Below are positions 1 through 38,950 of a stretch of 38,950 bases of DNA, piece after piece. Under the pieces are notes generated by a model. It ran no database searches and was not told the DNA's origin. It saw only the letters and a list, made by a program, of their open reading frames with translations. Position 1 is the stretch's first letter; the number at the start of each line of letters is the position of its first letter. A program made the position numbers and the translations under genes. Source of the DNA: a virus; IMG/VR virus record IMGVR_UViG_3300011965_000002; one strand, given 5' to 3'.

Positions 1-14
1 CATCATTATCAGAG
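1..14 (+). repeat. Terminal 14-bp overlap CATCATTATCAGAG, second copy at 38936-38949
   Basis: Exact match of 1-14 with 38936-38949, in the same reading frame as the tape measure gene. The last base (38950, A) differs from base 15 (T). Confidence 0.85.
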
Positions 15-11416: not shown

Positions 11417-12151
11417 ATGATGAAGAAGGAGTACAGGTTAGATGAATTCCTGGATATGAAGCGTCGCTGGGAGGCCTTCAGAATCCAGAAGGGTCGAAAA
11501 CCTAACTACGTGACTGATAAGGCGGGTGAAAAGATCCCAAGAGACGTGTTTGATGATATGCTACTAAGATATGAACGCTTCGTTGCACTCAACCATAGAG
11601 ATCCAGCCCTCATCAAAGTGAAGGGTAATACTGCTGATGACGGGTGGGTTACCACTGGGTATTTCCAGCAGGACTATCAGGACACGGATCACACCTGCGG
11701 CCCCAGCAGCCTCCAGATGGCTCTCTCTGCCCTTGGGTGCAAGATATCGGAGTCGGAGTTAACAAAGGCGGCTGGGACAACATTGAAGGGAACAGACCAT
11801 AAAGGTATGTTGAAGGCTATCACTTATGCAGCGAATAAGTGTAAAAAGAAACTTAAAGCCGAATTTAAAAAATTCAAGGCAATAGGATGGGATTCGATCA
11901 TTAAACACGTTGAGGGTGGCGGGGAAGTCATAATACACCTTGTCACCCGGCCAGGCCTTGACACGGATGTGAATGGTCGAGTGGTCTGGCGTGGGGCCTT
12001 CGGACACTACGTATACCTCGCCGGAATCAACAAGAAGAAGGGGATTGTGAGGATAGCGGATCCGACAAAGGGTGTCCGTGAATTTACACAGGGGCAGGTG
12101 GTTCAGGCCATGAATAACCTGTCACAGCCCAGCATACTCCTCATAAAATAA
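11417..12151 (+). CDS. pei: Pseudomurein endoisopeptidase (endolysin): two pseudomurein-binding repeats plus a C39-like peptidase domain
   Basis: Repeats LDEFLDMKRRWEAF...GRKPNYV and RDVFDDMLLRYERF...RDPALI. Catalytic motifs QDTDHTCGPSSL, GHYVY and ADP. Confidence 0.85.
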   Translation: MMKKEYRLDEFLDMKRRWEAFRIQKGRKPNYVTDKAGEKIPRDVFDDMLLRYERFVALNHRDPALIKVKGNTADDGWVTTGYFQQDYQDTDHTCGPSSLQMALSALGCKISESELTKAAGTTLKGTDHKGMLKAITYAANKCKKKLKAEFKKFKAIGWDSIIKHVEGGGEVIIHLVTRPGLDTDVNGRVVWRGAFGHYVYLAGINKKKGIVRIADPTKGVREFTQGQVVQAMNNLSQPSILLIK

Positions 12152-12946: not shown

Positions 12947-13260
12947 TGATGAATCGCTTCATGCAATTGAGGAGTAAACTGGACATCCCCTCATTAGATG
13001 AGATCACTGTAAGGTTTGAGAGAAAAAGATGCTTCCTCCCCACCGCCTACTGTTACCCTGAGATGAAGGTGATAGTCATCGAAGGGAACCCTGCAAGTCT
13101 GGAGAGGTATGGGCTCGCTGAACTCATCTGCCATGAACTAGCAGAATACGAGTATTACCATGAAAATAGTGGGGAAAGCATGCACAACAAAGATTTCAGG
13201 TTGATAGAAACAAGATACAGGGAGATCATAGAGGAAATAATCAGAGAAGAACATGAATGA
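12946..13260 (+). CDS. Hypothetical protein, possibly a degenerate zincin/metallopeptidase
   Basis: LICHELAE...MHNKDF resembles HExxH...H..F but has Glu in place of the second His. Confidence 0.5.
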   Translation: MMNRFMQLRSKLDIPSLDEITVRFERKRCFLPTAYCYPEMKVIVIEGNPASLERYGLAELICHELAEYEYYHENSGESMHNKDFRLIETRYREIIEEIIREEHE

Positions 13261-14856: not shown

Positions 14857-16814
14857 ACTTCAAAGAAGCCCTGAAGGACAACTACTTCTCATCAGGACTA
14901 GACACAGAGGACTTCATCATCGCAGTCACACACCTCGCAAAGAACAGGAACATCCCAGAAAAAGACATAATACAGGCCCTAACAGCAACAAAGAAACATT
15001 ACAACGAACCATACACAAAAAAGGAGCACATCAAGGCCCTTGTGAAGGAAACATGCAAATCAGAGGCCCCAGATGATGAATCGCTGAAAACACTCAAATT
15101 ACTCCTCGACGATGAAAGAGCTGACAGAATACTCGAATGCCTTGAATCATACCAGCCAGAACCCATCATATCCATACCATTCCATGGAGACAGCGAGATC
15201 TACCTGGACGACCAGGAAAAAAGGGTGCTCCTAATCAAAACTATAAACATCAAGGGCAAATCAATCACAGAGGAACGGATAGTCATAGACGCCTACCCTG
15301 AGAAGATATCGATCTACGAATCACCACTCCCAGGTGAAACACGACAAATCAAAATACAGTGGATATCACCAACACGACAAAGATTCACTGAGGGCCCAGC
15401 ACCATTCGAGTACCACATAGAGACGCTGAAAGAATCCGGCCGCATATTCTACCACAACGTCTGCAGAGACGTCCTGGCCACCATAATCGGGTGGACGGCC
15501 TACAAGGGGAACGCAGTCATCGAAAGAGGAGTTGACACACCAGGATTCTACTACAACGAAAACGAGGGAAAAATATACTCAGTTAAATATGACCTCAAAG
15601 ACGTCACCACCGATGACATCGTAGCCTGCGCAGATTTGCTCTCCAGCCTCTCAGAGTACTTTGATGACCCTGTGAAGCTAGCGACAGTCTTGAAATGGTG
15701 CATCATAGCGCCGTTCAGTTATGTGCGCAAACAAGTTGGCGCTCCACTATTCCCATACCTGTATCTCTATGGTGCTTCAGGTTCAGGGAAGACCAGTGTC
15801 GCCAGGATAGGTCAGTACGTCTACACTTACCCTACAAGTGAGAACGATGTCGGTGGCTCCAGTTTTGACACAGTGGCGAGGGTAGGTCATAGGATCAGCC
15901 AATCAACCTTCCCTATCATCGTGAACGAACCAAAAGCCTGTTTTGACAGGCCCAGCACTGCAGAGATGATTAAGGTGATGGTGGAGTCAACGATAGGTCG
16001 CGGGAGACATGAAGGGAAAGTATTCAAGAACATACCCAGCCTATCACCAGTCATATTCACTTCAAACCATTACTTGCCACCAGATGACGCGCTACTACGA
16101 CGCCTTGAAGTGATAAACTTCATCCAGTCCGAGCGAAAGAAAGATGATGATTCTAAGGAGTTCAATGAGAAATTTAAGGTCAACACACCCCATAAGAGCC
16201 CATTAATGATTCTGAACAGCCTCGGATCATTCGCTGCAAGGGAGTTCATCGAGGACTTGGATCTCTGCACAGACGACTGGAAGACCGCCGCGAACAGTAT
16301 CATCCTCAGGTTCTATGCTGACGCTGGCCTGAAGCCCCCGGAGTGGTTGCTCGAGTGGTCAGAGACAGAGACATTAAATGATGTGGACGATGATATCAGG
16401 GAGCAGGTCAGGATATTCATTGTTGATCAGATCAATAATGAGGTCAGGAAGGCTAAATGGGTTGACAGTGAGGAATATAACGTGCAGAGAGACTTCTCCG
16501 AGAGTATTAGGATTTCTTTCTCTGAGAAGGCTGAGAATGTCCTGATGAATGGCCTTATACCCTACATGGTGCTGCATGATGGGTATAGGGGCCGACGTGT
16601 TGTGTTTACTGGAGGGTTTAAGGATGCTGTGAATAGAGCGACTGGTTTGTCGTTGACGTTGAAGGGCCTCTCTGACATCCTGGGTGAGCATTGGATGTAT
16701 GGTTCTGTGAAGGTGTCAGGGAGGGTGATGAAGTGTATGCATATCTCGTTTGATGAGTTTGTTAAGTTTGTTGATTTAAGTGAAATTGTGTTAGAAAAAC
16801 AGGAGGATTTTTAG
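14853..16814 (+). CDS. Replication protein: primase-C-terminal-like helical N-terminus plus P-loop helicase/ATPase (DUF927-like)
   Basis: Walker A LYGASGSGKT, Walker B-like IIVNE, VIFTSN and ALLRR motifs. Followed by an iteron-like field and PCNA. Likely start is ATG 14853 after GGGGTG. Confidence 0.65.
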   Translation: MNFKEALKDNYFSSGLDTEDFIIAVTHLAKNRNIPEKDIIQALTATKKHYNEPYTKKEHIKALVKETCKSEAPDDESLKTLKLLLDDERADRILECLESYQPEPIISIPFHGDSEIYLDDQEKRVLLIKTINIKGKSITEERIVIDAYPEKISIYESPLPGETRQIKIQWISPTRQRFTEGPAPFEYHIETLKESGRIFYHNVCRDVLATIIGWTAYKGNAVIERGVDTPGFYYNENEGKIYSVKYDLKDVTTDDIVACADLLSSLSEYFDDPVKLATVLKWCIIAPFSYVRKQVGAPLFPYLYLYGASGSGKTSVARIGQYVYTYPTSENDVGGSSFDTVARVGHRISQSTFPIIVNEPKACFDRPSTAEMIKVMVESTIGRGRHEGKVFKNIPSLSPVIFTSNHYLPPDDALLRRLEVINFIQSERKKDDDSKEFNEKFKVNTPHKSPLMILNSLGSFAAREFIEDLDLCTDDWKTAANSIILRFYADAGLKPPEWLLEWSETETLNDVDDDIREQVRIFIVDQINNEVRKAKWVDSEEYNVQRDFSESIRISFSEKAENVLMNGLIPYMVLHDGYRGRRVVFTGGFKDAVNRATGLSLTLKGLSDILGEHWMYGSVKVSGRVMKCMHISFDEFVKFVDLSEIVLEKQEDF

Positions 16815-17111
16815 GTGAACCTAAGAGGTAACCTGAAGGTAACCCAAAGTAACCTCAACCATGAGGTTACCTTTAAAGACCTGGAGAGCCTTTTTTTCGG
16901 TAAAAAGAGGTTCTCAGCGATTTCCGAAAAAGGTAACCTGAACCTGAGGGGTGATACCCTATACCAAAAAAATTTTGGTCAAACCCTTAAGTTACCTTGG
17001 TTACCAAGTTACCTTTTATATATGGGTTACCAAAGTTACTTTGGTTACTTTTCCTCAGAATCCTCAGATAACCCGGAAACCCACAAAAAAGATGTTAAAC
17101 CCCGGGTTACC
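16814..17111. repeat. Putative replication origin: field of RGTWACY repeats around an AT-rich core
   Basis: GGTAACC at 16827, 16838, 16932; AGTAACC 16848; GGTTACC 16865, 16999, 17025, 17105; AGTTACC 16990, 17007; AGTTACT 17034; GGTTACT 17043. TTTTATATAT at 17014-17023. Confidence 0.7.
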
Positions 17112-17151
17112 GGGACAAGAACAAGCCAAAACATATATAGAGGTGAGATAG

Positions 17152-17442
17152 ATGAATAAAAACACAAAAGAGAGATTATGGGGATTTAAAGAAATAACCC
17201 ACTATCTTGGGTACTCAATCAAAGTCAAACCCACACTCGAAAAAATCGCGAAAGGATACAAAGTCAGCATTGCAGTCATCGAAGAATTTCAACCCCACTT
17301 CACACCCACAACCGGTGGGATGAGTCAGACAACCCTCGAAGTAGGAGTATACAGGACAAGAACAGAGTCAATCAAGAAGATAAAGGAGATAATGGACACA
17401 ATAACAATAGAAGACCTCCTCATAGGAGGGATGAACCAGTGA
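17152..17442 (+). CDS. Hypothetical protein (96 aa)
   Basis: RBS GAGGTGAGATAG and overlap with the PCNA start. Confidence 0.75.
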   Translation: MNKNTKERLWGFKEITHYLGYSIKVKPTLEKIAKGYKVSIAVIEEFQPHFTPTTGGMSQTTLEVGVYRTRTESIKKIKEIMDTITIEDLLIGGMNQ

Positions 17443-18203
17443 AAGCCATAAAACTCGAGACAGACAACCCATCAGACCTTCACAGCATAACACAGATGTT
17501 AACACAGATAAACGTTGACATCGCCACCATCCACGCCACGCCAGAATCCCTCACCATAACCGGAATGGACGGCTCACACATCACCTACTACAACATAGAG
17601 ATCACACCAGAATTCTTCACAACATACAAAGTCCCAGAGGAAGAAGAAATCATAATCCCTGTTGAAGAACTCAACAACATCCTGAAACTCACACGAAGAG
17701 AAGACACAATCACCATCACCAACAAAACCGATGATGAAGAGAACACCACATCCCTCATCATCACCAGGTCAACAGAGAAAGGCGAAACCAGGTTCACAAT
17801 ACCCTGCCCTGACACAGAATACGCCACACCAACAGCACAAATAGACACATTCCAATTAAACGCAACCCTCACAGTCAACACAGACATCATCACATCCTTC
17901 TTCAAAGACGCAGCCCTCACATCATCAGAGAGTATAGACATAAAAGTTGATGAGGACTATCTACATCTCAAGACATGCAATGATTACAATCCTTTCCAGG
18001 TCATCTTCCGCCATGTGCATGGGGAGAGAGTGGATGGAGAATACTTAAGCCGATTCACAATAGAAAAACTCAAACCACTCATCCTACCCAGGTTTGAGAC
18101 CGTCACAATCCATATCGACAATGAGAAACCCATCAGATTAGAATACTCGTCCAATGGGGTTAAGGCGAATCTCCTTCTCGCCCCACGGATCATAGGAGAA
18201 TAA
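17439..18203 (+). CDS. pcn: Virus-encoded archaeal-type DNA sliding clamp (PCNA)
   Basis: 254 aa. MDGSHITY, EELNNILK, HGERVD, EKPIRLEY and LLAPRI match conserved PCNA motifs. Confidence 0.9.
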   Translation: MKAIKLETDNPSDLHSITQMLTQINVDIATIHATPESLTITGMDGSHITYYNIEITPEFFTTYKVPEEEEIIIPVEELNNILKLTRREDTITITNKTDDEENTTSLIITRSTEKGETRFTIPCPDTEYATPTAQIDTFQLNATLTVNTDIITSFFKDAALTSSESIDIKVDEDYLHLKTCNDYNPFQVIFRHVHGERVDGEYLSRFTIEKLKPLILPRFETVTIHIDNEKPIRLEYSSNGVKANLLLAPRIIGE

Positions 18204-18219
18204 AGGGAAGGGATTTGTC

Positions 18220-18789
18220 GTGACAACAGTCCACATCAACACAAACGTGAAACTAAGACGCAGAAACCTTAAAAACGCCGTCCTATACATCGTCGATAAA
18301 TACGGGGATGAGATAGGCCTCTCAAGTGATGGTATCTGCGAAAAGATCATCGAAGAAGGCCTGATGCACAGTAGATCCTCCCCGACCAGGAAGATGGTAG
18401 CATACACGCTCTCACAACTGAAACGTGAAGGTATGGTGAGGGTGGATAACACTACAAGAGGTCCAAGATTCAGTCTCGAACCACACGTCAATGTTCAAGT
18501 CCATCAAAGCCCCGCGCCCAGGACTATCTGGGCGGAATTATACATGGAAACCATCCAAGCCCTCAAAGTCTCTGACGAACCTCTCACAACCCATGAACTC
18601 TTCGAAGTCGTGACAGATAACGGTGAATACAAGGGATATCATCTCACTGAAGAGGAGTATGTGACGAGGGTCATATCACCCCTCTCCTGTCAGGGTTATC
18701 TTATGGAGATAGATGAACCTGAGAGGTGCGCCAGGTGTTGGGGATACCGTGAGAATGGATTCAAAACAAGCAATGAGAGGATGAGTTGA
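18220..18789 (+). CDS. Putative tandem winged-helix DNA-binding protein
   Basis: GLSSDGICEKI...VAYTLSQLKREGMV and PLTTHELFEVV...ISPLSCQGYL patterns. Confidence 0.5.
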   Translation: MTTVHINTNVKLRRRNLKNAVLYIVDKYGDEIGLSSDGICEKIIEEGLMHSRSSPTRKMVAYTLSQLKREGMVRVDNTTRGPRFSLEPHVNVQVHQSPAPRTIWAELYMETIQALKVSDEPLTTHELFEVVTDNGEYKGYHLTEEEYVTRVISPLSCQGYLMEIDEPERCARCWGYRENGFKTSNERMS

Positions 18790-19376
18790 CGGTGATGCTC
18801 ATGAAATCTGTTGAATTCGCGTCTAAAGAATGGTGGGAGCTGAATAAGAGAGAATCAGAGAGGATCGAGGATTCCATAGTCCGGCTGAGAGAGGAGGGCT
18901 ATGAATATAAGGAGATCTGTGATGCCCTCGGAGTAAGCCGTGGGAGAGTGTGGAAAGTCCTGTCAAAGCATGGCCTAGTCCACAAGTTCAAGGACATGGA
19001 TAAGGTCACCAGGACTGTTCACAGACTCTACAAGAATGGGTACACCATCCCTGAGATCGCGAGGACTCTGAGGATCAGTGAGAAGTCTGTACGTCAACTC
19101 GTGAGGAAACTTGATTATCCTTACAGGTGGCGTGTGAACAGGGAAGGCAGATTCTTGAAGGTGGGGTGGGAACATCCCCGCCCCTTCACCATCTTTGAGC
19201 TCCATAAAGCCTACAAGCTACACGTTGAGGAGGGGTGGAGTATCCTGAAGCTCATGAAGATCCTCGGTGGCGGATACATGACTGTCAGGAGGTACATACA
19301 AGCATATGGTGCAGGGGAACTCGATGAGGTCTGGGAGGCCTATGATGAGTACCATGGCGACCGTAAGGGCCCTTAA
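18786..19376 (+). CDS. Multi-HTH transcription regulator
   Basis: Three HTH-like units: GYEYKEICDALGVSRGRV, GYTIPEIARTLRISEKSV, GWSILKLMKILGGGYMTV. Confidence 0.75.
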   Translation: MTVMLMKSVEFASKEWWELNKRESERIEDSIVRLREEGYEYKEICDALGVSRGRVWKVLSKHGLVHKFKDMDKVTRTVHRLYKNGYTIPEIARTLRISEKSVRQLVRKLDYPYRWRVNREGRFLKVGWEHPRPFTIFELHKAYKLHVEEGWSILKLMKILGGGYMTVRRYIQAYGAGELDEVWEAYDEYHGDRKGP

Positions 19377-19394
19377 CCTCTGAGTGGGCCCTTA
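19364..19394. terminator. 9-bp inverted repeat at the end of the HTH gene
   Basis: TAAGGGCCC (19364-72) / GGGCCCTTA (19386-94). Confidence 0.45.
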
Positions 19395-19400
19395 TTCATC

Positions 19401-19411
19401 GTTATATAAAC
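19401..19411 (+). promoter_or_regulatory. TATA box for the SWIM-csx16 unit
   Basis: TTATATAAA about 25 bp upstream of the SWIM ORF. Confidence 0.5.
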
Positions 19412-19427
19412 ATATAACGAAGGGAGG

Positions 19428-19685
19428 GTGTTGTTTTTGACTCGGATGAATAAGATTAGGAATGCGAGGAGGCTTAAGGCCACATTCAAGGGTGAATGTG
19501 ATGAGGGTCGTCTCTATGAGGTAGAATCAGGGGATAACCTGTACAGTGTCCTTGTGACTGATTCCACGATCAAGTGTAATTGCCCTGACTATGAGTACCG
19601 CTGGTTTAAGGCGGAGGCATCATTCGTTTGCAAGCACTGCTGGGCTGTGCTGATGGAGATAGCGCAGAGAGGTGGTGGTTGGTGA
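19428..19685 (+). CDS. SWIM zinc-finger protein
   Basis: CNCPDY...CKHCWAV (C-x-C-xn-C-x-H). Confidence 0.85.
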   Translation: MLFLTRMNKIRNARRLKATFKGECDEGRLYEVESGDNLYSVLVTDSTIKCNCPDYEYRWFKAEASFVCKHCWAVLMEIAQRGGGW

Positions 19686-20008
19686 TGAATTACATAATCA
19701 CAAGGCATCAGGGTACTGTGGATTGGGTGAGGGCTAAACTGAATGGTAAAGGCCTTGACCGGGACGTCTTCGTGGCAGGTCATCTTAGTAATGAGATGAT
19801 CATGCGCATGAAGAAGGGGGATGCTGTCTACGGCATCCTCCCCATCCACCTCATCAAGAGGTTGCTCCGTAAGGGTGTGGAGTATTATCATGTGGTGTTG
19901 CCTCGTGTTCCTAGGGAGTTTCGTGGTAGGGAGTTGTCTCTGGAGCAGGTTAGGGAGTTTGGTGGTGAGATCTGGAAGATTGAAGATATTGATTGTGTGA
20001 AGGTGTAG
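19685..20008 (+). CDS. csx16: Csx16-family protein (CRISPR-associated, ring-nuclease-like), 107 aa
   Basis: ITRHQGTVDWV, GHL, KGDAVYGILPIHL and FRGRELSLEQV follow the Csx16 (VVA1548) signature RH.G..W...V.G.LP..L...RG.EL. ATG 19685 overlaps the SWIM stop. Confidence 0.8.
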   Translation: MNYIITRHQGTVDWVRAKLNGKGLDRDVFVAGHLSNEMIMRMKKGDAVYGILPIHLIKRLLRKGVEYYHVVLPRVPREFRGRELSLEQVREFGGEIWKIEDIDCVKV

Positions 20009-20010
20009 TT

Positions 20011-20427
20011 ATGAATGAGAGGATTGATAGTAGTGTGGTTAATAGTCTGGTTTCTGATGAAAGGTATGATATATTTTTGAGGGGGGATAGGGATGAGTTT
20101 GTTGAGGAGATTTTTAGGCGGGTGTATGGTCTGGTTCCTGATGGGTTGAAGTTTGAGATGGAGTATATTATGAGTGGTGAGGTTTTTGATGAGTTGGATA
20201 TGATTGATTTGGGTCTTGATAGTGAGGTGGTGCTTCGTGAAAAGGATATGATTCTGAGTAGGTTTGATGAGATGAGTGGCAGGGTTGTTAATTGTCTCCT
20301 GGATATGGCTGTGGATGTTGATTTGATCGTGTTTTTTATGAATTGTGTAAGTTTTATTTATGATATGGCTGAGGCGGGCATTGATATGAAGATGGGTCGT
20401 CTTAATAGTAGTATTGTTGAGGAGTGA
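20011..20427 (+). CDS. Highly acidic hypothetical protein, C-poor DNA
   Basis: D/E-rich 138 aa from ATG 20011. Confidence 0.7.
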   Translation: MNERIDSSVVNSLVSDERYDIFLRGDRDEFVEEIFRRVYGLVPDGLKFEMEYIMSGEVFDELDMIDLGLDSEVVLREKDMILSRFDEMSGRVVNCLLDMAVDVDLIVFFMNCVSFIYDMAEAGIDMKMGRLNSSIVEE

Positions 20428-21512
20428 TATGTATGGATGAAAAGATGGAAGCTATAATGTATCGTTTGTCAAGGTTTGATACCTTAAAAGACCGTCTGCA
20501 GATCTATGATGATTTAGATGTTCTTTTAGGTTCTTCTAAGGATATTAGGGATCTTAAAGAGGAGCAGATAGATTATTATGGTATAGATGATGTCAGGGAT
20601 AGGATTGTTGATGAACTTAAAATGTGTGGGATTGGTGATAAATATGTTCCAGAGGTATATGTCCATGAGAAACTCAGGGACATTATAGCCTGTGACAAGA
20701 GGATACAACAGATTGCCGAGGCGATATACAGGGGAGAGGATGATATACCTTCATTACAGTTAAAACCAGTTAAATACAGGGAAGAAAGAGAGTACAGGTT
20801 TGCCTATGACCCTAAAGATGGAGTGATTACTATGGAATTTAAAGATAAAGATATAAACATGGTTATCTGTGAATTGGATCGTCAGGTTACAATGGAGGAT
20901 CTTAAAACTGTTGATTCTGTGAGGGCTGTGATCAGGGAGATGATCAGTGATGTAATCGTGTTAAATGAGGTTGAAGAGATGACATATTCTTTTAAATGTC
21001 AGGTATTTAGGGAGAATTATGAACAGTTAATACGGGATGTTTTTATAGAGGTAGAAGGGTTGCTTGGGGAGGAAATAAAGACAGAATTTGAGTATATTAA
21101 AGATGAGGTTTTCTTTAAAGAGTTTGATAACATTGATTATTGTGCTGATATAGGTGGAGTAGAGAAGATATTTGGTAAGATAGATTCTATTAAAGACAAT
21201 GTGGTCATGGATTTGTTGCATCGTCGCATTGATAAGGAGATAATAGCACGATTTATAAATGCTGTTGATTTGCTTGTATGTATAGCAGAGACTGGGGTGA
21301 GGATAAAACAGGGTTATGGAGATGGAGCGGCTCCGAATGTGAAAGAAAAAGATGCTGGAGCTTATTGGGATAGAATAGGTTCTGATGTATATAAGGTAGG
21401 ATGGGGGGATATTACAGGGTATTATAATGATGTAGAGATCTATATTGACTTAGATGATTCTGTGAAGGCTATTGGAGAATTTGTAGCCGATGCTGTTCTT
21501 AGAACCTTTTAA
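20424..21512 (+). CDS. Acidic hypothetical protein (362 aa), low GC
   Basis: Long open frame in AT-rich DNA; no family recognised. Confidence 0.8.
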   Translation: MICMDEKMEAIMYRLSRFDTLKDRLQIYDDLDVLLGSSKDIRDLKEEQIDYYGIDDVRDRIVDELKMCGIGDKYVPEVYVHEKLRDIIACDKRIQQIAEAIYRGEDDIPSLQLKPVKYREEREYRFAYDPKDGVITMEFKDKDINMVICELDRQVTMEDLKTVDSVRAVIREMISDVIVLNEVEEMTYSFKCQVFRENYEQLIRDVFIEVEGLLGEEIKTEFEYIKDEVFFKEFDNIDYCADIGGVEKIFGKIDSIKDNVVMDLLHRRIDKEIIARFINAVDLLVCIAETGVRIKQGYGDGAAPNVKEKDAGAYWDRIGSDVYKVGWGDITGYYNDVEIYIDLDDSVKAIGEFVADAVLRTF

Positions 21513-23222: not shown

Positions 23223-23846
23223 ATGAAACTCAGCACAATGTACACCAAAGCCACAAAACAAGAACCCAGCCCCGGCAAAGAACAAGGAACGTGCTGCATA
23301 TGCCACCAACAAACCAGACAAGGACACAAAAAAAGACTCGGCACAACCTTCACAACAACAGACCAGACAAGCAGAGGAGACGTCATCTGCCCCTACTGCA
23401 TGACACTCAAAAAAGACAGCAACAAACTCCGCAGGACAATGTGGATCCTCACAGAAGACAAATTCCACCCATTCAAACGCCCAGAACTCCCACAGATCCT
23501 CAAAGAACCACCAGACAAACCATACTACCTCTACCTGACAAGGACGTACAAGAAGATAGGCTGGATAATCATGGACGGCCTCCTGAACCAACCCAACCAG
23601 AAGATCATCAGATTAGCCTGTGACATGGAAACACATACACTAAGCCGTGAATTAGCAGTCCAGACCATAGAATGGATTAACGAGCTCAGAGAAAAATACA
23701 GAATCAGTAAGACGGAGATGAAGACTGGTGATGTGAACCCAGGGAAACTACAGGACATGACCGTCAGGGAAGCCAGGAACCTGAACATCACCCTAAACAA
23801 ATTGAAGGGTAACCCCACATGGGAGTTACTCATAGACATGGCATAA
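23223..23846 (+). CDS. csf1: Type IV CRISPR-Cas Csf1 (Cas8-like large subunit)
   Basis: Zn-finger CCIC...CPYC, then PP..P(Y/F)...TR.YKK.GW and C-terminal GNP.WELL motifs; first gene of a csf2/csf3 operon. Confidence 0.8.
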   Translation: MKLSTMYTKATKQEPSPGKEQGTCCICHQQTRQGHKKRLGTTFTTTDQTSRGDVICPYCMTLKKDSNKLRRTMWILTEDKFHPFKRPELPQILKEPPDKPYYLYLTRTYKKIGWIIMDGLLNQPNQKIIRLACDMETHTLSRELAVQTIEWINELREKYRISKTEMKTGDVNPGKLQDMTVREARNLNITLNKLKGNPTWELLIDMA

Positions 23847-23867
23847 TATTAGAGAGGTGAAAAAGGG

Positions 23868-23999
23868 ATGACCCAAAAGAAGAACCCGGCACCCATCCTC
23901 GTCAGGATAGGGGTATGGGTGACCATGATCTGCCTGGGAATAGTACTATTCTTCGTAGTCCTGGGCCTAATATCCGCAATACTTGGAGGAGGCGTATAG
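23868..23999 (+). CDS. Small membrane protein (43 aa; not in ORF track) inside the type IV operon
   Basis: RBS GAGGTGA. MTQKKNPAPILVRIGVWVTMICLGIVLFFVVLGLISAILGGGV has a basic N-terminus and a long hydrophobic stretch. Confidence 0.65.
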   Translation: MTQKKNPAPILVRIGVWVTMICLGIVLFFVVLGLISAILGGGV

Positions 24000-24000
24000 G

Positions 24001-24348
24001 ATGACTGATGAGAAGACTGAAAACGCCCTCGCAAAGTGCCTTGCGATGACGTATAGGAACATTGAATGGAAGAAAGTTGGTGTGAAATCAGCGTACACAT
24101 ACTTCACAGACCGTGTGCGCGCAGCAAGCCGCATGAGCACCATCACATCCTTCCTAGAAGAACTAAACAGGATGTGCGGTGTCAGCTTCACCCAGCACAG
24201 CCTCAAAGACATAAACACACTCAAAGAGAACGAAGACGAAGCACTCAACCTCCTCAGACACGAGACCAACTACGCAGTCCTACTCGCCCTGGAAGTTGTT
24301 GAGAAACTCAAAATGAAGAAAGCAGAGGATGAAGGTGATGAAGTATGA
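24001..24348 (+). CDS. cas11: Type IV-B small subunit (Cas11-like)
   Basis: 115-aa all-helical protein between csf1 and csf2 (Y..I.W...AYTYFTDRVRAA...FLEEL). ATG 24001 after GGAGGAGG. Confidence 0.7.
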   Translation: MTDEKTENALAKCLAMTYRNIEWKKVGVKSAYTYFTDRVRAASRMSTITSFLEELNRMCGVSFTQHSLKDINTLKENEDEALNLLRHETNYAVLLALEVVEKLKMKKAEDEGDEV

Positions 24349-25187
24349 GGACTGTTAAGTACCCTGGAGTGTTAACTGCCAGGACACCTATCCATCACGG
24401 CGGCCCTGAAGTCTATGGGACGATAAAACCCATACTCACACTCCCCACACTCATAGAGGATGAGAAGGGGATGAGGGTTGAGGACGTCCCCTACATCCAT
24501 GGGAATGCGATCAGGGGGTACCTCCGCCGCCTGGTCATGCAGGACTTCCTGGATCAACTCGATTATGACCTCAAATCAGCGAAGATCTACCATTTTCTCT
24601 TCACAGGGGGCCTCCTGGAGGCTAACACAAAATCCTCTGGTATGATTGACGTGAAACTCAAATCAGGGATCCGCAAGTACATCCCACCAGCAAGTCTCTG
24701 GGGTTCTGCCCTGGGCAATCAGATGCTCCAGGGCAAATTGAAGGTGGACCTTGCAGAACCGATCTGCAAGGAACTTTACTGGCAGCAGAAACAGTACTGT
24801 GACATCGATGGCCCTTCAAGTTATTTCCTGAAGGCGAGGGACTTCGGGACCCGCCTTGATAGTCTCAGGGAGTACAAGGAGGACAGAGAGGATGGAGAGC
24901 AGGCGACGCAGATGAAGTACGAGTTCGAAGTCATCGTGAAGGGTGCGAAGTTCTATCATGAATTCACACTCACAGACACTGACCCTGTTGAGGAATCATG
25001 TTTCATCCGGGCATTGAACCTGTGGAGCGAACGCCCCTACCTCGGGGGGAAGAGCGGTTCAGGGTACGGGAAACTGGATATCCGCTATGACTATGACCCT
25101 GATGCTGAGGCAACATACCTCTCGTATGTCGAGGAGAAGGCTGACCTGATCAGAGAGTTTCTTGATGAATTACAGGCAAACTGGTGA
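24345..25187 (+). CDS. csf2: Type IV CRISPR-Cas Csf2 (Cas7-like RAMP backbone)
   Basis: LTARTPIHHGG, VPYIHGNAIRGYLRR, LFTGG, SLWG, GTRLD, QMKYEFE and the G-rich loop LGGKSGSGYG. Confidence 0.9.
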   Translation: MRTVKYPGVLTARTPIHHGGPEVYGTIKPILTLPTLIEDEKGMRVEDVPYIHGNAIRGYLRRLVMQDFLDQLDYDLKSAKIYHFLFTGGLLEANTKSSGMIDVKLKSGIRKYIPPASLWGSALGNQMLQGKLKVDLAEPICKELYWQQKQYCDIDGPSSYFLKARDFGTRLDSLREYKEDREDGEQATQMKYEFEVIVKGAKFYHEFTLTDTDPVEESCFIRALNLWSERPYLGGKSGSGYGKLDIRYDYDPDAEATYLSYVEEKADLIREFLDELQANW

Positions 25188-25936
25188 TGATCATGTCTCT
25201 TGCTGCCAGGATCCAGGATAAAATCAGCGCCTACCAACCAGGAGGGGATGCACACACACCCTTCAAGGCGGAATTCAGGGTCAAACCACCAGTATTCACA
25301 GGGAACGCATGGATCTACCTCGACGGGATCATCCAGTACCTCTGCACCAGGGAGGCCCTCGGCGGGGACTTCTATGACATCCCCACCAACCACCTATTCG
25401 ACTTCAGCTCCATGCAGCTCCCGTTGAGGCGGACGGGGGACGTGTATCATGCCAGCGTCGGCGTCTATAGGGCCCCGAGGCTCAGAACATCCCGCATCTA
25501 TAAGCGTTTCGAGGATTACTTCATCGAGAACCATCCTCAACTACTCAACAGGTCATATGGTATAGGCAGCGGCCACTACAAGAACCATATGATCACCTAC
25601 CCAATAATAGTCACTGACACCGTGACTTTCTATGGCTGTGGCGACATAGTGGAGGTGGAGAGGCTCCTCAAACACCTCACACACCTGGGGAAGAAGACAG
25701 GCATCGGCGGCGGTAAAATCCTCAAACTCAAGGTCAGGGAGACGGAGATGGATCATAGCTTCTACCATGATGAGTATGGGGTGATGAGGCCCATCCCCAC
25801 AAGCCTGAAGGTCCCCCTACCTGTAGGGGCGGGCCAGGTGATTATGAAGATGGCCTATAAGCCACCATACTGGGACAAGAGGAACATAGACCTCTGCATA
25901 GCCCCCAAGAATCAGCTAGTAGGGGAGGCCCTATGA
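25184..25936 (+). CDS. csf3: Type IV CRISPR-Cas Csf3 (Cas5-like RAMP)
   Basis: LDGII, LPL..TGDVYHAS, KRF, GSG.YK, VTFYGCGD, LGKKTGIGGG, MRPIP and YKPPYW motifs. Confidence 0.88.
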   Translation: MMIMSLAARIQDKISAYQPGGDAHTPFKAEFRVKPPVFTGNAWIYLDGIIQYLCTREALGGDFYDIPTNHLFDFSSMQLPLRRTGDVYHASVGVYRAPRLRTSRIYKRFEDYFIENHPQLLNRSYGIGSGHYKNHMITYPIIVTDTVTFYGCGDIVEVERLLKHLTHLGKKTGIGGGKILKLKVRETEMDHSFYHDEYGVMRPIPTSLKVPLPVGAGQVIMKMAYKPPYWDKRNIDLCIAPKNQLVGEAL

Positions 25937-26583
25937 TAACAGGCGCTGTGACACCAATCAAGGATCATAGGGTCATACATGGCGATGCATTCAACGATGA
26001 CACCTACCAGCTTCTCCTCAATGATAAGAAGGCCGGCATCCTCTTCACAGACCCACCATTTGACCTCTACGACTTCAGTTGGCTTAACAAGGCCCTCAGG
26101 TGCATGGATGATGAGTGGGCTGCATTCATCTGTTTATCAACAGAACAGGTTAAAGTCCTGACAAAGGAATTCTATGACTATGTTAACTATTATTACACGA
26201 TAATAATGAAGCCTAAACCGAATAAGCGCATATTCACACCCATACCTAACTCATACCACATCGTACACCTCAATGGCGGCAGAAAACACATCAGAACTGA
26301 TAAACCCTTATACTCAACCATGAACGAATCCTACTACCTGAACGAACCTGGTGGGTCGAGGATGAAACATGTCCATCAGGGATGGGCGAAACCGCCCGCG
26401 ATGATAACTCACCTCCTCAGCCATTATGTAGTCCCTGGGGATATCATCCTCGACCCATTCGCAGGTTCAGGGGCTACTATAATGGCCGCGGAGAACCTTG
26501 GAGCCGTATGCTACGCGATAGAAAAGGAATTCGAACAGATAGCAGAATTAATGACTAACCTAAGGATGAATGGTCTAAGATGA
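25933..26583 (+). CDS. Amino (N6-A/N4-C) DNA methyltransferase, beta-class motif order
   Basis: Catalytic TDPPF precedes the SAM-binding DPFAGSG; HGDA and AKP motifs; ATGA overlaps at both ends. Confidence 0.88.
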   Translation: MITGAVTPIKDHRVIHGDAFNDDTYQLLLNDKKAGILFTDPPFDLYDFSWLNKALRCMDDEWAAFICLSTEQVKVLTKEFYDYVNYYYTIIMKPKPNKRIFTPIPNSYHIVHLNGGRKHIRTDKPLYSTMNESYYLNEPGGSRMKHVHQGWAKPPAMITHLLSHYVVPGDIILDPFAGSGATIMAAENLGAVCYAIEKEFEQIAELMTNLRMNGLR

Positions 26584-27287
26584 GGAAATTCAAGGAAGCC
26601 ATGAAGATCTACGCAACCCGGGACGAGTTCCTGGAACTCAAAGCCCAAACCCTCAGATTCATCAAGAAACTCTTCAAAGATTACAGGCGTCCATACGTTG
26701 CATTCAGCGGAGGGAAGGACAGCACAGTCCTCCTCCATTTAACCCTCCTCATAGAAAAGGACGTTGACGTTGTTCACACTGACTGGGGCCCAGCATTCGT
26801 CCCGCGCAACATCAAGGACAGGATACTCAGGAATGCTATGAAGATCGGAGCGAAAAAAGAGAACCTTAAAGTCCTCAAGGTGAAGGAAGGTTGGAGGCTG
26901 AGCCAGAGGGAAATCCCAGGCATCCCCCCAAGTTTTTGGGTGGAACTTAAATCCCTGATAGATGCCAACGGCTTCGACCTCGTCCTCCTCGGTTTCAGGG
27001 CTGATGAATCACGTAAACGATGGAAAAGAACAAGGAGGATCCTGGACACGCGCAGAGACCCCCATGAGGCTTACCCTCTAAGGGATTGGAGTTTTGAGGA
27101 CATATATGCATACATATACCATGAAGGCCTGCCTCTGCTCAGACATTATGATGATTATTCAGGGCTTCTCGGGTATGATAAGACGAGGTGGGTTACCTAT
27201 TTTGATAGTGAATTCGATCATCTGGGGGCATCATATGTTGATGGGGTGCTTAGGCCAGAGTACAGGCACCCTGATATGGAGGGATAG
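26580..27287 (+). CDS. cysH: CysH/PAPS-reductase-like PP-loop protein (type IV-B accessory)
   Basis: AFSGGKDS, GFRADES..R and YPLRDWS..DIYAYI motifs; no cysteine residues. Confidence 0.88.
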   Translation: MRKFKEAMKIYATRDEFLELKAQTLRFIKKLFKDYRRPYVAFSGGKDSTVLLHLTLLIEKDVDVVHTDWGPAFVPRNIKDRILRNAMKIGAKKENLKVLKVKEGWRLSQREIPGIPPSFWVELKSLIDANGFDLVLLGFRADESRKRWKRTRRILDTRRDPHEAYPLRDWSFEDIYAYIYHEGLPLLRHYDDYSGLLGYDKTRWVTYFDSEFDHLGASYVDGVLRPEYRHPDMEG

Positions 27288-27315
27288 ACCTCTAAGGAAA
27301 TTAATGGGGTGAGAT

Positions 27316-27420
27316 ATGATGGAGAAGGTGAGAACAACAGTCACAATCCCAGAGTACCTCTACGAGTACATGAAGGAGATTGTGAAACTGGCTAAGGATG
27401 AAGGATGTGTAGCAAAATGA
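27316..27420 (+). CDS. Short RHH-like peptide (34 aa; not in ORF track)
   Basis: RBS GGGGTGAG. VRTTVTIPEYLYEYMKE is a CopG/RHH-like strand plus helix, but the second helix looks short. Confidence 0.45.
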   Translation: MMEKVRTTVTIPEYLYEYMKEIVKLAKDEGCVAK

Positions 27421-27827
27421 AGGAAGATAGAGCGAACTCAAAGAACTCAAAGCTAACTGTAGAGTGGAACTCAAAGAATTCTGCTAAAGAGGAATTAAAG
27501 TCCTGGAGGTCCTCACAGTACCGTAGATTCCTTGAATCAGAGGCGAAGACAAGCCTCCCTGTCACGAGTCATGACATCGAGGAAGTGATGTGGATCGTTG
27601 AGAGAGTGAAACTCTCAGATCTTCATGCGAGGGCGACATGGGAGCAGGTCCTCCTTGCCCTCACAGTATTCATCCTTGAATCCAGACTTCCCTACACCAT
27701 CCAATTCGAGCGTTATAGTATCCTTAAAAAGTATCGGGTTGATGTACGCCTCTACGCGACTGTGTTGCGGAATCTTCTCAGGGTTTATCGTTTGAACATG
27801 CCTATACAGTCCTCCCTATCACGGTAG
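27417..27827 (+). CDS. Helical protein, possibly a single TFB-like cyclin fold
   Basis: ATGA overlap. Five-helix pattern with LHARATWEQVLLALTVFIL reminiscent of the TFB RGRS.E.V.AA.LY segment. Confidence 0.4.
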   Translation: MKEDRANSKNSKLTVEWNSKNSAKEELKSWRSSQYRRFLESEAKTSLPVTSHDIEEVMWIVERVKLSDLHARATWEQVLLALTVFILESRLPYTIQFERYSILKKYRVDVRLYATVLRNLLRVYRLNMPIQSSLSR

Positions 27828-27896
27828 GCGTGTGGCATCTTGACTGTGTTACGTTATATAGTGAGAGGGGACTATTTATGTCCCCTGGTGAAGGCT

Positions 27897-28046
27897 ATGA
27901 GTCTTTGTCCATATTGTGGGTCCGAGAGAAGGGATTATATCGACGAGGATGGGTACATGGTCTGCAAGGATTGTGGCCTTGTCCTCGCTGCACTGTACCC
28001 TTACACTGCAGGTTTGAGATTGCATCTCCCTGAGGGCCTCCTATAA
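27897..28046 (+). CDS. TFIIB/TFB-type zinc-ribbon protein (49 aa)
   Basis: CPYCGS...DEDGYMVCKDCGLVL; RBS GGTGA before ATG 27897. Confidence 0.75.
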   Translation: MSLCPYCGSERRDYIDEDGYMVCKDCGLVLAALYPYTAGLRLHLPEGLL

Positions 28047-28052
28047 CCGGGG

Positions 28053-28340
28053 GTGAGATTATTGGCGAATGAATATATCTTGGAACACTTAGAGGCCTTT
28101 AACTCTTCCCTCGTCGATTTTATTAACCGTTTTGAGTGGGTTGAGCGTGGAGTTGTGGAGGTCTGTGACATACTCAACTTCGCAGCTCTTATTGTCGGTG
28201 TGGCTGTCTGTTTCCTTCCTGATGAGTATGGTGGTGTCTGTATCTATATCGATGACGATGCAGTTGAGTACCTCCCATTGATACTCGACGTGTTCAAGAA
28301 GAACTACGTGAACTGGGGTCTCAGGGAGCCGCTGATCTAA
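28053..28340 (+). CDS. Hypothetical protein (95 aa)
   Basis: Open frame packed in the operon. Confidence 0.6.
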   Translation: MRLLANEYILEHLEAFNSSLVDFINRFEWVERGVVEVCDILNFAALIVGVAVCFLPDEYGGVCIYIDDDAVEYLPLILDVFKKNYVNWGLREPLI

Positions 28341-28347
28341 TATTGGG

Positions 28348-28572
28348 GTGAGATATATGGGTGTTGATCATGGAAAGCTGAGTACATACGTTGTTGGTGT
28401 TATGGTCCTTGTCTATGGGTATCTTCTGAGTAACCCGTCCCTTATTGAGGGATTCATGGCTAAAATGGGCTTGGCAGGGTACAGTCCACTTGTGTTATCG
28501 ATACTTGCATTCACATATGATTATTTCTTCCCAAGAGAATCATCAGAGATGGAAGGCCCTGATGAGGCCTGA
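28348..28572 (+). CDS. Small membrane protein, holin-like
   Basis: Two hydrophobic segments and a charged C-terminus. Confidence 0.55.
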   Translation: MRYMGVDHGKLSTYVVGVMVLVYGYLLSNPSLIEGFMAKMGLAGYSPLVLSILAFTYDYFFPRESSEMEGPDEA

Positions 28573-28589
28573 ATAAAGGGTGGTGATGA

Positions 28590-28898
28590 GTGGGAGCGCA
28601 TCAAATCCAATGCGATGACATTAAGAACCTTACCAGGGACCTTGCTGAGATTAAGGCAGTCCTCAGGGAGAAGAATGTTATGAATGGGTTCACAAGGGAG
28701 CGTATTGAGGATCTTGAGAAGACTGATGATGAGATCTATGAACGCCTCGATGGACTCCATGATGACCTTGTAAGTCTCCGTGAGGAGGTCTATGGCCTTA
28801 ATGTGACTCTTAGACTCTTTTATCGGATTAATGTGGCTGTGATAATCTCTGTTTTCACTACTCTCGCGGTTTATGGGTTTAAGGTTATCCTGCTTTGA
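28590..28898 (+). CDS. Coiled-coil protein with a C-terminal TM helix (XhlA/holin-like)
   Basis: Heptad pattern, then INVAVIISVFTTLAVYGFKVILL. Confidence 0.55.
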   Translation: MGAHQIQCDDIKNLTRDLAEIKAVLREKNVMNGFTRERIEDLEKTDDEIYERLDGLHDDLVSLREEVYGLNVTLRLFYRINVAVIISVFTTLAVYGFKVILL

Positions 28899-28934
28899 AC
28901 TTCATTATAGTGTAATATAGCGAAGTATACTGGT

Positions 28935-29459
28935 GTGATGATGAAGGGTGAGGAAGAGAAGCACAGGGAAGCATACGACCATTACCTCGCCCACATTGAG
29001 GCAGGATACACAAAGACGGCGAGCGTCAAAGAAACAGCCAGAAGGATAGGGGTCTCCGAGGCAACAGTCTGGAACTGGAAGAGACGCTTCCACTGGGATG
29101 AGAAACAGGCAATAGACAGCTACGAGATCAAACAGACATTCAAGGAACGGAATCATGAAATCATCATAGACTTCAAGACCAAATACCTCGCATTCCTCAA
29201 TGACCTCATCGACCAGGCCATAGAGGAATTCCGTGAGGGCCGAGGCGTCGTCATGATACGTGACGTCGGAGACCTCGAAAGAGTAATCAAAGTAGCCCTC
29301 CTCCTCCAGGGCGAGGCCACAAGCAGGACTGAGAGCAGCGTCCTGCAAGTGAACAGGGAGAAGATAGAGGACTATGAGGAGTACTTCAGAGAATTAGAGG
29401 AGGAACTTGGACTGGAGGATGGTGCGGATGAGGATCAAGGCGCGGAGGGGATTTACTGA
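28935..29459 (+). CDS. terS: Terminase small subunit
   Basis: HTH ARRIGVSEATVWNWKRRFHW; immediately upstream of TerL. Confidence 0.8.
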   Translation: MMMKGEEEKHREAYDHYLAHIEAGYTKTASVKETARRIGVSEATVWNWKRRFHWDEKQAIDSYEIKQTFKERNHEIIIDFKTKYLAFLNDLIDQAIEEFREGRGVVMIRDVGDLERVIKVALLLQGEATSRTESSVLQVNREKIEDYEEYFRELEEELGLEDGADEDQGAEGIY

Positions 29460-32917: not shown

Positions 32918-33959
32918 AGACGTTAAAGACGAAGAAAGAGTCGAGGAAGAGACACGGGAGCCACAGAGGATGAAAGTTGATGCTGTGATGTGGTCCCCCG
33001 GGGTCATATACCCATTCCTGGATGGAACACCAGGGAAAGTCTACGCTGACAAGGAACTCGCAGATGAAGTGTACGAGAAGATACTTGCAAGGGTCCAGGA
33101 CGGAGGCCTCCCCATCACCATAGACCACCTGGACCAGGACGACCTGGAGATACTCAAGGAACTCGGGTACGGCGTGGTTGGAAGGGTTACAGGGGTTGAA
33201 CTCCGCAATGGACGAGTACACGCAACAGAGATAACATTTGACGGAGAGGCCATCCCACAACTCCTCAAAGATGGCCTCATGAGGGCCTTCAGTATAGAAG
33301 CAGAGGTTGAAACCGAACCCGTAGAGGATGGGTACCGCATCATAGGCTTCAGGGACGTGACAGGTGTGAGCATAGTGAAAAAACCAGCCTGCCCATCCTG
33401 CCTCGTCTACCGCATCAATGCGTACACATCAAATGATAAGCTGAGAATCCAGATGAAGTTCACGCCAAGAGGTGATATAATGAAAAAAGAGGATGAAATA
33501 ACTGAATCCGAGGTAAAAGCTCAGGAAGAAGTTCCTCCGGAAGATGGAGGCGAGGGAGACACAGTGGAATTACTCCCAGACCTCATAGACAGAATAAATG
33601 AATTGATAAATGAACTCGATGCCATGATCACCAGGATCCAGGAACTCCAACCAGTTGAGGATGGTAAAGAGGCTCCGGCGGAGGAAATCGCAGAGAACCT
33701 TGCAGATGACCTGAAAGAGAAGGCAGCAGCCCTAAACGCTAAGAAACTCGTCGAGAAGTACATTGAGGAAGGTAAAGTGAAACCCGCGGAGACAGAGGCC
33801 CACATCAAACTTGCGATGAAAGCCCCAGCTGAGTACTCTAAGATCATGGATGAAGCACCCCAGGTCATTGAGATGTCAAGGATGTCCAGGAACCCGGCTG
33901 ATATGAAGGAGAAAGAGTTCTACACGTATGAAGAATACCGTAAAAGATTCCACAGGTGA
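32901..33959 (+). CDS. Capsid maturation protease with C-terminal scaffold region
   Basis: PITIDH and FSIE motifs with an acidic helical C-terminus; lies between minor head and capsid genes. Likely start TTG 32910. Confidence 0.75.
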   Translation: MILLSEDVKDEERVEEETREPQRMKVDAVMWSPGVIYPFLDGTPGKVYADKELADEVYEKILARVQDGGLPITIDHLDQDDLEILKELGYGVVGRVTGVELRNGRVHATEITFDGEAIPQLLKDGLMRAFSIEAEVETEPVEDGYRIIGFRDVTGVSIVKKPACPSCLVYRINAYTSNDKLRIQMKFTPRGDIMKKEDEITESEVKAQEEVPPEDGGEGDTVELLPDLIDRINELINELDAMITRIQELQPVEDGKEAPAEEIAENLADDLKEKAAALNAKKLVEKYIEEGKVKPAETEAHIKLAMKAPAEYSKIMDEAPQVIEMSRMSRNPADMKEKEFYTYEEYRKRFHR

Positions 33960-38783: not shown

Positions 38784-38814
38784 ACCACTCCTCATTTTTT
38801 TTTAGGGTGCATGT

Positions 38815-38950
38815 ATGGATGAGATAAGTGTAATTGTAAGACTATTAGACGAGTTCAGTGGGAACCTGTCATCGATGGTATCCACCGCAGAGTCTGCTCT
38901 TTCAAGCCTTGAATCGACAGTAAATTCAGCATCATCATCATTATCAGAGA
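38815..38950 (+). CDS. N-terminus of the tape measure protein (continues at position 15)
   Basis: MDEISVIVRLLDEFSGNLSSMVSTAESALSSLESTVNSASSSLSE is open to the window end and in frame with the ORF at the window start. Confidence 0.85.
   Translation, partial: MDEISVIVRLLDEFSGNLSSMVSTAESALSSLESTVNSASSSLSE

Follow-up and report, generated by a model that had tools for sequence, protein, structure and literature searches.

We found that the virus record IMGVR_UViG_3300011965_000002 (38,950 nt; the whole stretch of DNA analysed is hereafter called the window) almost certainly carries, at positions 23223-27287, a complete type IV-B effector cassette of the CRISPR-Cas class (short palindromic repeats, clustered and regularly interspaced, with their associated proteins). 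The cassette belongs to a ~39-kb tailed virus of Methanothermobacter, is kept by purifying selection, and includes a DNA methyltransferase of a lineage found here only in the slot between csf3 and cysH. According to a September 2026 paper (PMC13676074), which still calls its function unclear, type IV-B is alone among the widespread CRISPR-Cas subtypes in having no known biological role; the cassette described here does not solve that function. New in this analysis are the cassette-specific methyltransferase lineage together with the variable csf3-cysH slot, the assignment of the virus to Methanothermobacter with a type III-A context in the host, and the detection, within an RNA library, of a spacer directed at the cassette.

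The earlier note on this DNA, made from the letters alone, had described 23223-27287 as an array-less type IV-B-like effector operon of csf1, cas11, csf2, csf3 and a cysH-like gene, to be checked by profile searches. When these searches were carried out, the five genes were identified by strong matches (Table 1): Csf1, Cas11, Csf2 and Csf3 all matched type IV profiles, and Csf2 also matched the Pfam family RAMPs (E = 1.9e-7, above the cut-off) and NCBIfam TIGR03115 (E = 1.5e-14). The five-gene list held for every gene that it named, but it had omitted the methyltransferase and a 43-aa open reading frame (ORF) lying within the same span. Csf1 aligned over residues 11-206 to positions 14-214 of the 227 in Csf1_0_IV, carries CCxC...CxxC zinc-finger cysteines close to its N-terminus, and matched NCBIfam TIGR03114 at E = 1.6e-8, which is under the curated cut-off; no HD or Cas10 profile matched it better than E = 0.01. 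Cas11 had a second PADLOC match, Cas11_1_IV (E = 8e-7); an alternative start of its gene at TTG 23983 would give 121 aa, and the gene calls of relatives have 115 aa. For csf3, a start at GTG 25184 gives 250 aa and one at ATG 25187 gives 249 aa, the latter being more likely, as in relatives. In an alignment of 25 cassette homologues of the CysH-like protein, residues S43, G44, G45, K46, S48, G138, R140, E143 and R147 were invariant and no cysteine was; the SGGKDS motif is intact in the protein encoded here. A retained PP-loop with no conserved cysteine is the published description of CasCysH (PMC8175902).

Table 1. Features of the type IV-B cassette in the window, and the host protospacer within it.
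Feature	Coordinates	Strand	Product or description	Best profile match or evidence
csf1	23223..23846	+	type IV large subunit, 207 aa	PADLOC Csf1_0_IV, E 4.3e-29
43-aa ORF	23868..23999	+	possible small membrane protein between csf1 and cas11	
cas11	24001..24348	+	small type IV subunit, 115 aa with start at ATG 24001	PADLOC Cas11_0_IV, E 1.1e-23
csf2	24345..25187	+	Cas7 backbone subunit, 280 aa	PADLOC Csf2_0_IV, E 7e-69, full length
csf3	25184..25936	+	Cas5 subunit	PADLOC Csf3_0_IV, E 1.1e-46; NCBIfam TIGR03116, E 1.1e-18
DNA methyltransferase	25933..26583	+	216 aa	Pfam N6_N4_Mtase, E 8.6e-14
cysH-like	26580..27287	+	PP-loop ATP alpha-hydrolase (CasCysH), 235 aa	Pfam PAPS_reduct, E 9.4e-16
protospacer in methyltransferase gene	26122..26165	unspecified	target of a host spacer	spacer flanked by the 30-nt ATTTCAATCCCATTTTGGTCTGATTTTAAC in an RNA-library contig

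The overlapping stop and start codons that had been pointed out earlier were confirmed, as ATGA at the cas11/csf2, csf3/methyltransferase and methyltransferase/cysH junctions and as TGATG at csf2/csf3. In scans against Pfam, PHROGs and PADLOC, no Cas1, Cas2, Cas4, Cas6, Csf5, DinG/RecD or integrase family appeared among the scanned ORFs, which comprise all but a few small ones of the structural module. Neither a CRISPR array, a tRNA nor an Rfam family was found in the virus genome, nor were tandem or interspaced repeats of array type, and the host repeat ATTTCAATCCCATTTTGGTCTGATTTTAAC has zero copies in it even when 10 mismatches are allowed. These results agree with the earlier reading that cas1/2/4/6, dinG, an array and an integrase are not to be seen. 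Every gene-content feature of subtype IV-B that was tested was thus found, namely Csf1, Cas11, Csf2, Csf3 and a Cys-free CysH-like protein that lacks the catalytic cysteine of PAPS reductases, with no helicase, Cas6, adaptation gene or array. Among solved structures, searched by sequence, Csf2 came nearest to the IV-C Cas7c (11fs_C, E = 5.3e-10, residues 21-248), with weaker matches to the IV-B Csf2 (7jhy_e, E = 2.1e-4) and the IV-A Csf2 (8rc2_A, E = 3.3e-4). Pairwise, Csf2 is nearer to the solved IV-C Cas7 than to that of IV-B; the IV-B assignment is one by gene content. Csf3 matched the IV-A Csf3 (8rc3_F, E = 1.7e-5), and for Csf1 and Cas11 this search gave no match.

Comparison with the related cassette L046 gave ratios of nonsynonymous to synonymous substitution rates (dN/dS) of 0.126 for csf2, 0.092 for csf3, 0.118 for the methyltransferase and 0.145 for cysH, and comparison of this gene set with L043 and L044 gave 0.12-0.25. 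The earlier note had named relaxed selection and lack of expression as observations that would speak against its reading; dN/dS was found to be 0.09-0.15, and contigs on 23239-27341 were present in the metatranscriptome assemblies of four libraries, which fits transcription without proving it. In the contigs from RNA libraries the cassette is covered, as compared with little or no cover in the bins ~16670-20000 and 27342-29342, although contigs cannot rank expression and gaps in their cover are no proof, so that neither operon ends nor relative expression can be read from this. Sequencing runs from 12 studies, which sampled sludge, digesters, bioreactors and manure, contained the cassette stretch. 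Cassettes nearly identical to it are present in one NCBI metagenome assembly and many Logan contigs, and the contigs that carry the 90%-identity Csf2 cluster are 36-40 kb long. In locus L001, a cassette 99-100% identical to that of the window stands beside a different packaging module. Identity between L046 and the window is 100% for csf1 and cas11, 93% for csf2, 83% for csf3, 76% for the methyltransferase and 88% for cysH; the identical csf1 and cas11 and the diverged later genes suggest a recombination breakpoint inside the cassette, pointing to csf2.

These data bear on the view that the cassette is a selfish or decaying passenger, or else a regulator of gene expression, in the virus or its host, that binds RNA generally and acts outside CRISPR. 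In accordance with that view, the recombinant IV-B complex bound heterogeneous RNA with no sequence preference (PMC7937560), and one relative, L042, shows internal deletions in csf1 and across csf3, the methyltransferase gene and cysH. However, the strong purifying selection on the cassette genes and their wide retention in Methanobacteriales-linked and IMG/VR viral contigs rule out a decaying passenger here, leaving a regulatory role untouched, and we regard the view as a whole as quite unlikely. The L042 contig (ENA, biogas fermenter, 2673 bp) encodes a Csf2 87% identical to that of the window; one of its deletions joins csf3 residue ~131 to cysH residue ~74, with loss of the methyltransferase.

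At least 174 homologues of Csf2 were found, many of them at ~55% identity in records of Methanobrevibacter, Methanobacterium and Methanothermobacter. An alignment-based Csf2 scan of IMG/VR detected 26 viral loci, and a single-protein scan of the same database detected nothing. A separate whole-genome search covering 329 species genomes from the phylum of the host found the Csf2 clade in 5. One of them, the Methanobacteriales genome G162, has in addition to a canonical copy divergent Csf2-like fragments (L078-L080, on contigs C20 and C5; E = 4.6e-21, 4.2e-20 and 4.1e-10), which may represent another type IV variant. Among deposited phage genomes, megablast with 19 kb of the virus found none, and tblastn with Csf2 found Skermania phage SPI1 alone, at 25% identity. 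In L005-L009, csf1 stands at the end of the cassette (cas11-csf2-csf3-cysH-csf1). This arrangement occurs in Methanothermobacter-labelled relatives and in Patescibacteria and Synergistaceae bins; these cassettes are ~58% identical, and the bacterially labelled ones look like mis-binned viral contigs.

The methyltransferase shows the beta-class motif order, with DPPF (motif IV, residues 40-43) ahead of FAGSGAT (motif I, which binds S-adenosylmethionine, residues 176-182); in its alignment D40 and P41 are invariant and P42 nearly so. It matched PADLOC MTase_II (E = 3.1e-15). Its AlphaFold2 model (predicted local distance difference test score, 88.8) had its best fold match in the minimal N6-adenine DNA methyltransferase M1.HpyAVI (5hfj/5hek; template modelling scores of 0.69-0.81), followed by CcrM, M.MboIIA, the N4-cytosine enzyme N4CMT, M.RsrI and M.PvuII. 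Judged by its modelled fold, the protein is a minimal beta-class DNA amino-methyltransferase. When 1.84 billion representatives were scanned in full with HMMER, the methyltransferase's own cluster was the only one to score below 1e-30. The next matches, P0153 (34% identity) and P0154 (28%), lie directly after csf3; in L072 cysH follows the methyltransferase, and the contig of L071 ends before the next gene can be identified. In all, the nearest relatives (76, 34, 28 and 25% identity) are placed in the csf3-cysH slot of cassettes, and the next-nearest after them, P0155 and P0156, are phage methyltransferases of 320-390 aa outside cassettes. Because the nearest relatives sit in cassettes and the following ones outside are longer phage enzymes, the short methyltransferase is an old, cassette-specific lineage. 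It is nevertheless dispensable: sister cassettes lack it (L044, L005), have another gene in its place (L043) or keep a remnant (L008, L009), so that the core function does not require it. The words "methyltransferase" and "methylase" are absent from two reviews of type IV systems (PMC7038947, PMC8175902).

Gene order among the relatives is conserved except at the csf1-cas11 and csf3-cysH junctions. We found the methyltransferase of the window also in the csf3-cysH slot of L045-L050, L011, L071 and L072, and, in L010 and L011, another N6_N4 family, whose motif is DPPW. Elsewhere the slot holds an IbrA-like 3'-phosphoadenosine-5'-phosphosulfate (PAPS) reductase with DUF3440 together with GNAT and ParB_N (L013, L017 and L018), Cas6 (L016 and L041), a 159-aa protein with no assigned family (L043), or a 50-residue remnant of the methyltransferase (L008 and L009); it is empty in L044, L005, L019, L021 and the bacterial-type cassettes. 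The copy of Cas6 that was tested, from L016, shares 44-52% identity with Cas6 proteins encoded on Methanobacteriales chromosomes, and no array, mini-arrays included, was found within 10 kb of the Cas6-bearing cassettes L016 and L041. L072, the cassette of a low-GC relative, carries both the methyltransferase and a Cas6 placed after cysH. Between its cas11 and csf2 (L072:1302-1784) lie a gene with a NUMOD3 domain, a DNA-binding module of homing-endonuclease type, and a 73-aa ORF.

The fixed position of the methyltransferase raises the alternative of RNA-guided or RNA-scaffolded modification of nucleic acids, in which the Csf complex would position the CysH-like adenylating enzyme and, in this lineage, the methyltransferase on bound targets and leave an epigenetic mark. 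The main point for it is that all the nearest relatives of the methyltransferase keep this position and that the gene is coupled, through ATGA overlaps on both its sides in the window and through the methyltransferase/cysH overlap that is also present in L072. In addition, relatives have other nucleic-acid enzymes in this slot, such as the second methyltransferase family and the IbrA-like protein with GNAT and ParB_N, and epigenetic or AMPylation roles have been speculated for CasCysH (PMC7038947, PMC8175902). On the other hand, the contents of the slot are mixed and often absent, which is the main point against this alternative, as no single chemistry can then be required; one old insertion, once inherited, would also keep the methyltransferase in place; and it folds like an ordinary site-specific DNA methyltransferase of the stand-alone kind, with no added docking domain. 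A complex prediction for the CysH-like protein and the methyltransferase scored 0.00, which is informative in neither direction. Such modification seems to us improbable.

The host genus is Methanothermobacter, which targets the virus including its cassette. Of 301 Methanobacteriales genomes sampled, 13 contain regular arrays of the 30-mer ATTTCAATCCCATTTTGGTCTGATTTTAAC, for which a literature search found no paper, at a spacing of 65-68 nt. In one of the array-bearing genomes, G023, a protein agrees exactly with AAB84968.1 of Methanothermobacter thermautotrophicus, and the array spacers of this genome match the virus at 13107-13142 over 35 of 36 nt and at 19460-19491 over 31 of 32 nt; spacers of the array in G021 match at 33015-33051 and 15672-15708, with 2-3 mismatches. 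In RNA library X16, from a digester, a short contig matches the protospacer inside the methyltransferase gene (Table 1) and carries ATTTCAATCCCATTTTGGTCTGATTTTAAC on both sides. Because the array spacers and the repeat-flanked methyltransferase spacer match the virus, we assigned it to Methanothermobacter. A pseudomurein-walled host is likewise indicated by the viral endolysin (11417-12151), which has a pseudomurein-binding repeat (a weak match) and a Peptidase_C39 domain, so that the virus is indeed one of methanogens, as had been proposed from the sequence. The PeiW and PeiP enzymes of psiM-type viruses belong to a different protease family from this endolysin. A further protospacer lies at 19355-19379, and the matches overall have 1-3 mismatches (locus L062 of G023 and locus L056 of G021); one G023 spacer is present twice in its array.

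A type III-A Cas10/Csm1 was found in four of five ATTTCAATCCCATTTTGGTCTGATTTTAAC-bearing genomes (E ~1e-170), in G023 ~13 kb from the start of an array. Csf2 was not found in the five repeat-bearing Methanothermobacter genomes, and there was no sign of a provirus in them. The virus itself encodes a stand-alone Csx16 (19628-20008; Pfam PF09652, 1e-30; PADLOC Csx16, 1e-32), the sole gene of this kind that the scanned ORFs showed beyond the cassette; its nucleotide sequence is 81% identical to that of a gene on the M. thermautotrophicus chromosome (G023:C1:402482-402800), and in L005-L007 a Csx16 gene lies directly upstream of the IV-B cassette. We regard the viral Csx16 as a host-captured candidate anti-type-III factor. 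Just upstream of it is a SWIM zinc-finger ORF (19428-19685).

One possible explanation for the cassette is competition between elements, or superinfection exclusion, in which a Csf complex loaded with host CRISPR RNAs or other guides would bind matching DNA or RNA of rival viruses and plasmids and block transcription or replication without cutting, as IV-A does. Type IV systems are mostly on mobile elements, with spacers mostly against plasmids, and IV-A represses without a nuclease (PMC7038947, PMC12669027). The near-identical cassettes of L001 and the window, in viruses with different packaging modules, fit this explanation, as do the mosaic breakpoints within the cassette, which are expected of a trait traded among competing elements, and the Cas6 in relatives' cassettes would supply guides. 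However, there is no DinG/RecD helicase partner, though IV-A needs one, and no array of its own with which to aim at competitors; moreover, the host spacers match the virus itself, so that borrowed guides would hit self. We consider this explanation unlikely, if somewhat less so than the two discussed above.

We prefer, tentatively and with slightly less than even confidence, the hypothesis that the Csf filament assembles on host CRISPR RNAs (crRNAs) as the anti-CRISPR arm beside Csx16, with the methyltransferase shielding viral DNA. Transcription from the AT-rich region upstream of csf1 would yield the cassette as a single unit with coupled translation. Csf2 and Cas11 would then form a nuclease-free, Csm-like filament on small RNAs, with Csf3 and Csf1 capping its ends. 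Because the virus has neither an array nor Cas6, these guide RNAs would be taken from the cell, most plausibly as the host's Cas6-processed crRNAs, and, held in an inert complex, they would be withheld from the type III-A effectors of the host and from any type I effectors. Csx16, a candidate for degrading the signal molecules of type III systems, would act alongside, making the cassette the anti-CRISPR arm of a counter-defence set. The CysH-like ATP alpha-hydrolase probably either adenylates a nucleic acid that is bound or generates some nucleotide product, and the methyltransferase may be an accessory that methylates DNA, most simply against host restriction, from which the other enzymes of the slot would likewise shield the virus. 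The Cas6 genes in or after the cassettes of relatives, the Csx16 genes adjoining cassettes and the type III-A system of the host all fit this hypothesis, and an RNA-sponge role for IV-B has been proposed in PMC7937560 and in a Methanoperedens preprint (bioRxiv 10.1101/2023.08.02.551345).

Several points weigh against the sponge hypothesis. A five-protein anti-CRISPR was judged unlikely by Pinilla-Redondo et al. (PMC7038947), given how simple the known anti-CRISPRs are, and no preference for crRNA was seen with the IV-B complex in recombinant form (PMC7937560). A sponge gives CysH no necessary role, though IV-B has no partner more constant than CysH. The lineage of the methyltransferase has kept to one slot down to 25-34% identity and is translationally coupled where the junctions were read (the window, and methyltransferase/cysH in L072), a fidelity that exceeds what a casual anti-restriction passenger predicts. 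Finally, the host keeps and expresses spacers against the virus, including its cassette, so that any protection must be incomplete. A combined version, in which a Csf complex guided by host crRNAs, those against this virus included, brings the methyltransferase and the CysH-like adenylating protein to protospacers and thereby masks the sites targeted by the host, is very improbable in our judgement; if true, it would be an RNA-guided epigenetic writer serving viral self-protection.

The remainder of the window is that of a tailed virus, encoding small and large terminase, portal, head-maturation, minor-head and minor tail proteins, and a tape-measure protein of 1,400 aa, along with a PCNA homologue. 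The tape-measure ORF (38803-38950 joined to 1-4292) has its ATG ~140 nt ahead of the window's end and continues in frame through the end-to-start junction, so that the 38,950-bp sequence closes on itself and the genome looks complete. The 14-nt string CATCATTATCAGAG is present at both genome ends, which show no exact terminal overlap. Between 20000 and 22000, GC content is 0.386, as compared with ~0.50, with a strong GC skew; a 362-aa ORF in this stretch (20424-21512) had no Pfam, PHROG or PADLOC match, and together these features suggest that the stretch may be recently acquired DNA. Right after cysH, a 34-aa ORF (27316-27420) with a strong GGGGTGAG ribosome-binding site has a ribbon-helix-helix-like N-terminus, VRTTVTIPEYLYEYMKEI, and may be a small regulator. 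A sliding-clamp docking peptide was considered at the C-terminus of Csf1 and dropped, as ...NPTWELLIDMA shows, by eye, no motif of the Qxx[ILM]xx[FY][FY] type.

Whether the 43-aa ORF is a true cassette component is uncertain. It encodes a Lys-rich N-terminus followed by ~30 hydrophobic residues, has its own GAGGTGA ribosome-binding site, ends one base ahead of the cas11 ATG, and is annotated as a gene in the near-identical contigs L003 and L004. A Pfam scan gave no match, and in more distant cassettes the csf1-cas11 junction holds unrelated genes of 82-142 aa or is empty, so that the ORF is not conserved in them.

The cassette offers a well-specified test bed for IV-B, with a cultivable host genus, near-perfect M. 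thermautotrophicus spacers against the virus, and a host type III-A system that resembles the IV-B complex structurally. It is common in anaerobic digesters and present in their metatranscriptome assemblies. Cassettes with the same methyltransferase, a different methyltransferase, Cas6, the IbrA/GNAT/ParB trio or an empty slot form natural comparison sets, and the cassette-only methyltransferase lineage is a concrete handle on the published "epigenetic" idea for CysH.

Virus-borne IV-B cassettes in archaeal viruses have already been published (PMC10848311; bioRxiv 10.1101/2023.08.02.551345), so that the novelty implied by the earlier note was overstated; csf2 and csf3 had also been seen on a Methanobrevibacter-linked viral contig (PMC9723712). 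The Fuxiviridae of Bathyarchaeia and the Methanoperedens virus Mp_virus_41kb are, like the virus described here, archaeal viruses with csf1, cas11, csf2, csf3 and a non-canonical cysH, and counter-defence was proposed for both. A host spacer targets cas7 in the Fuxivirus and the methyltransferase here, the Fuxivirus has a mini-array and Cas4 whereas this virus has neither, and in the accessible text no methyltransferase is named for either published cassette. The IV-B system on the megaplasmid of Mycobacterium sp. JS623 (7JHY), whose complex is a Csm-like Csf2/Cas11 filament on heterogeneous RNA with no nuclease subunits (PMC7937560), resembles the present cassette in its csf1, cas11, csf2, csf3 and cysH-like genes, its location on a mobile element, and its lack of an array, Cas6, adaptation genes and a nuclease. 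In contrast to that actinobacterial plasmid system, the cassette of the window lies in an archaeal virus, has an additional methyltransferase and the 43-aa ORF, and encodes a Csf2 nearer to the solved IV-C Cas7. The Thermococcales IV-C system (Cas7c, PDB 11fs; PMC13676074), the nearest solved match for Csf2, is likewise archaeal with Cas11 and Cas5 partners, whereas the cassette of the window includes CysH and has a Csf1 of 207 aa as its large subunit. For the methyltransferase, the closest known enzyme by fold, M1.HpyAVI of Helicobacter pylori, shares its small size and the placement of motif IV before motif I over ~205-211 aligned columns; identity is 20-22%, and HpyAVI belongs to a restriction-modification system whereas the methyltransferase of the window is encoded in a Cas operon.

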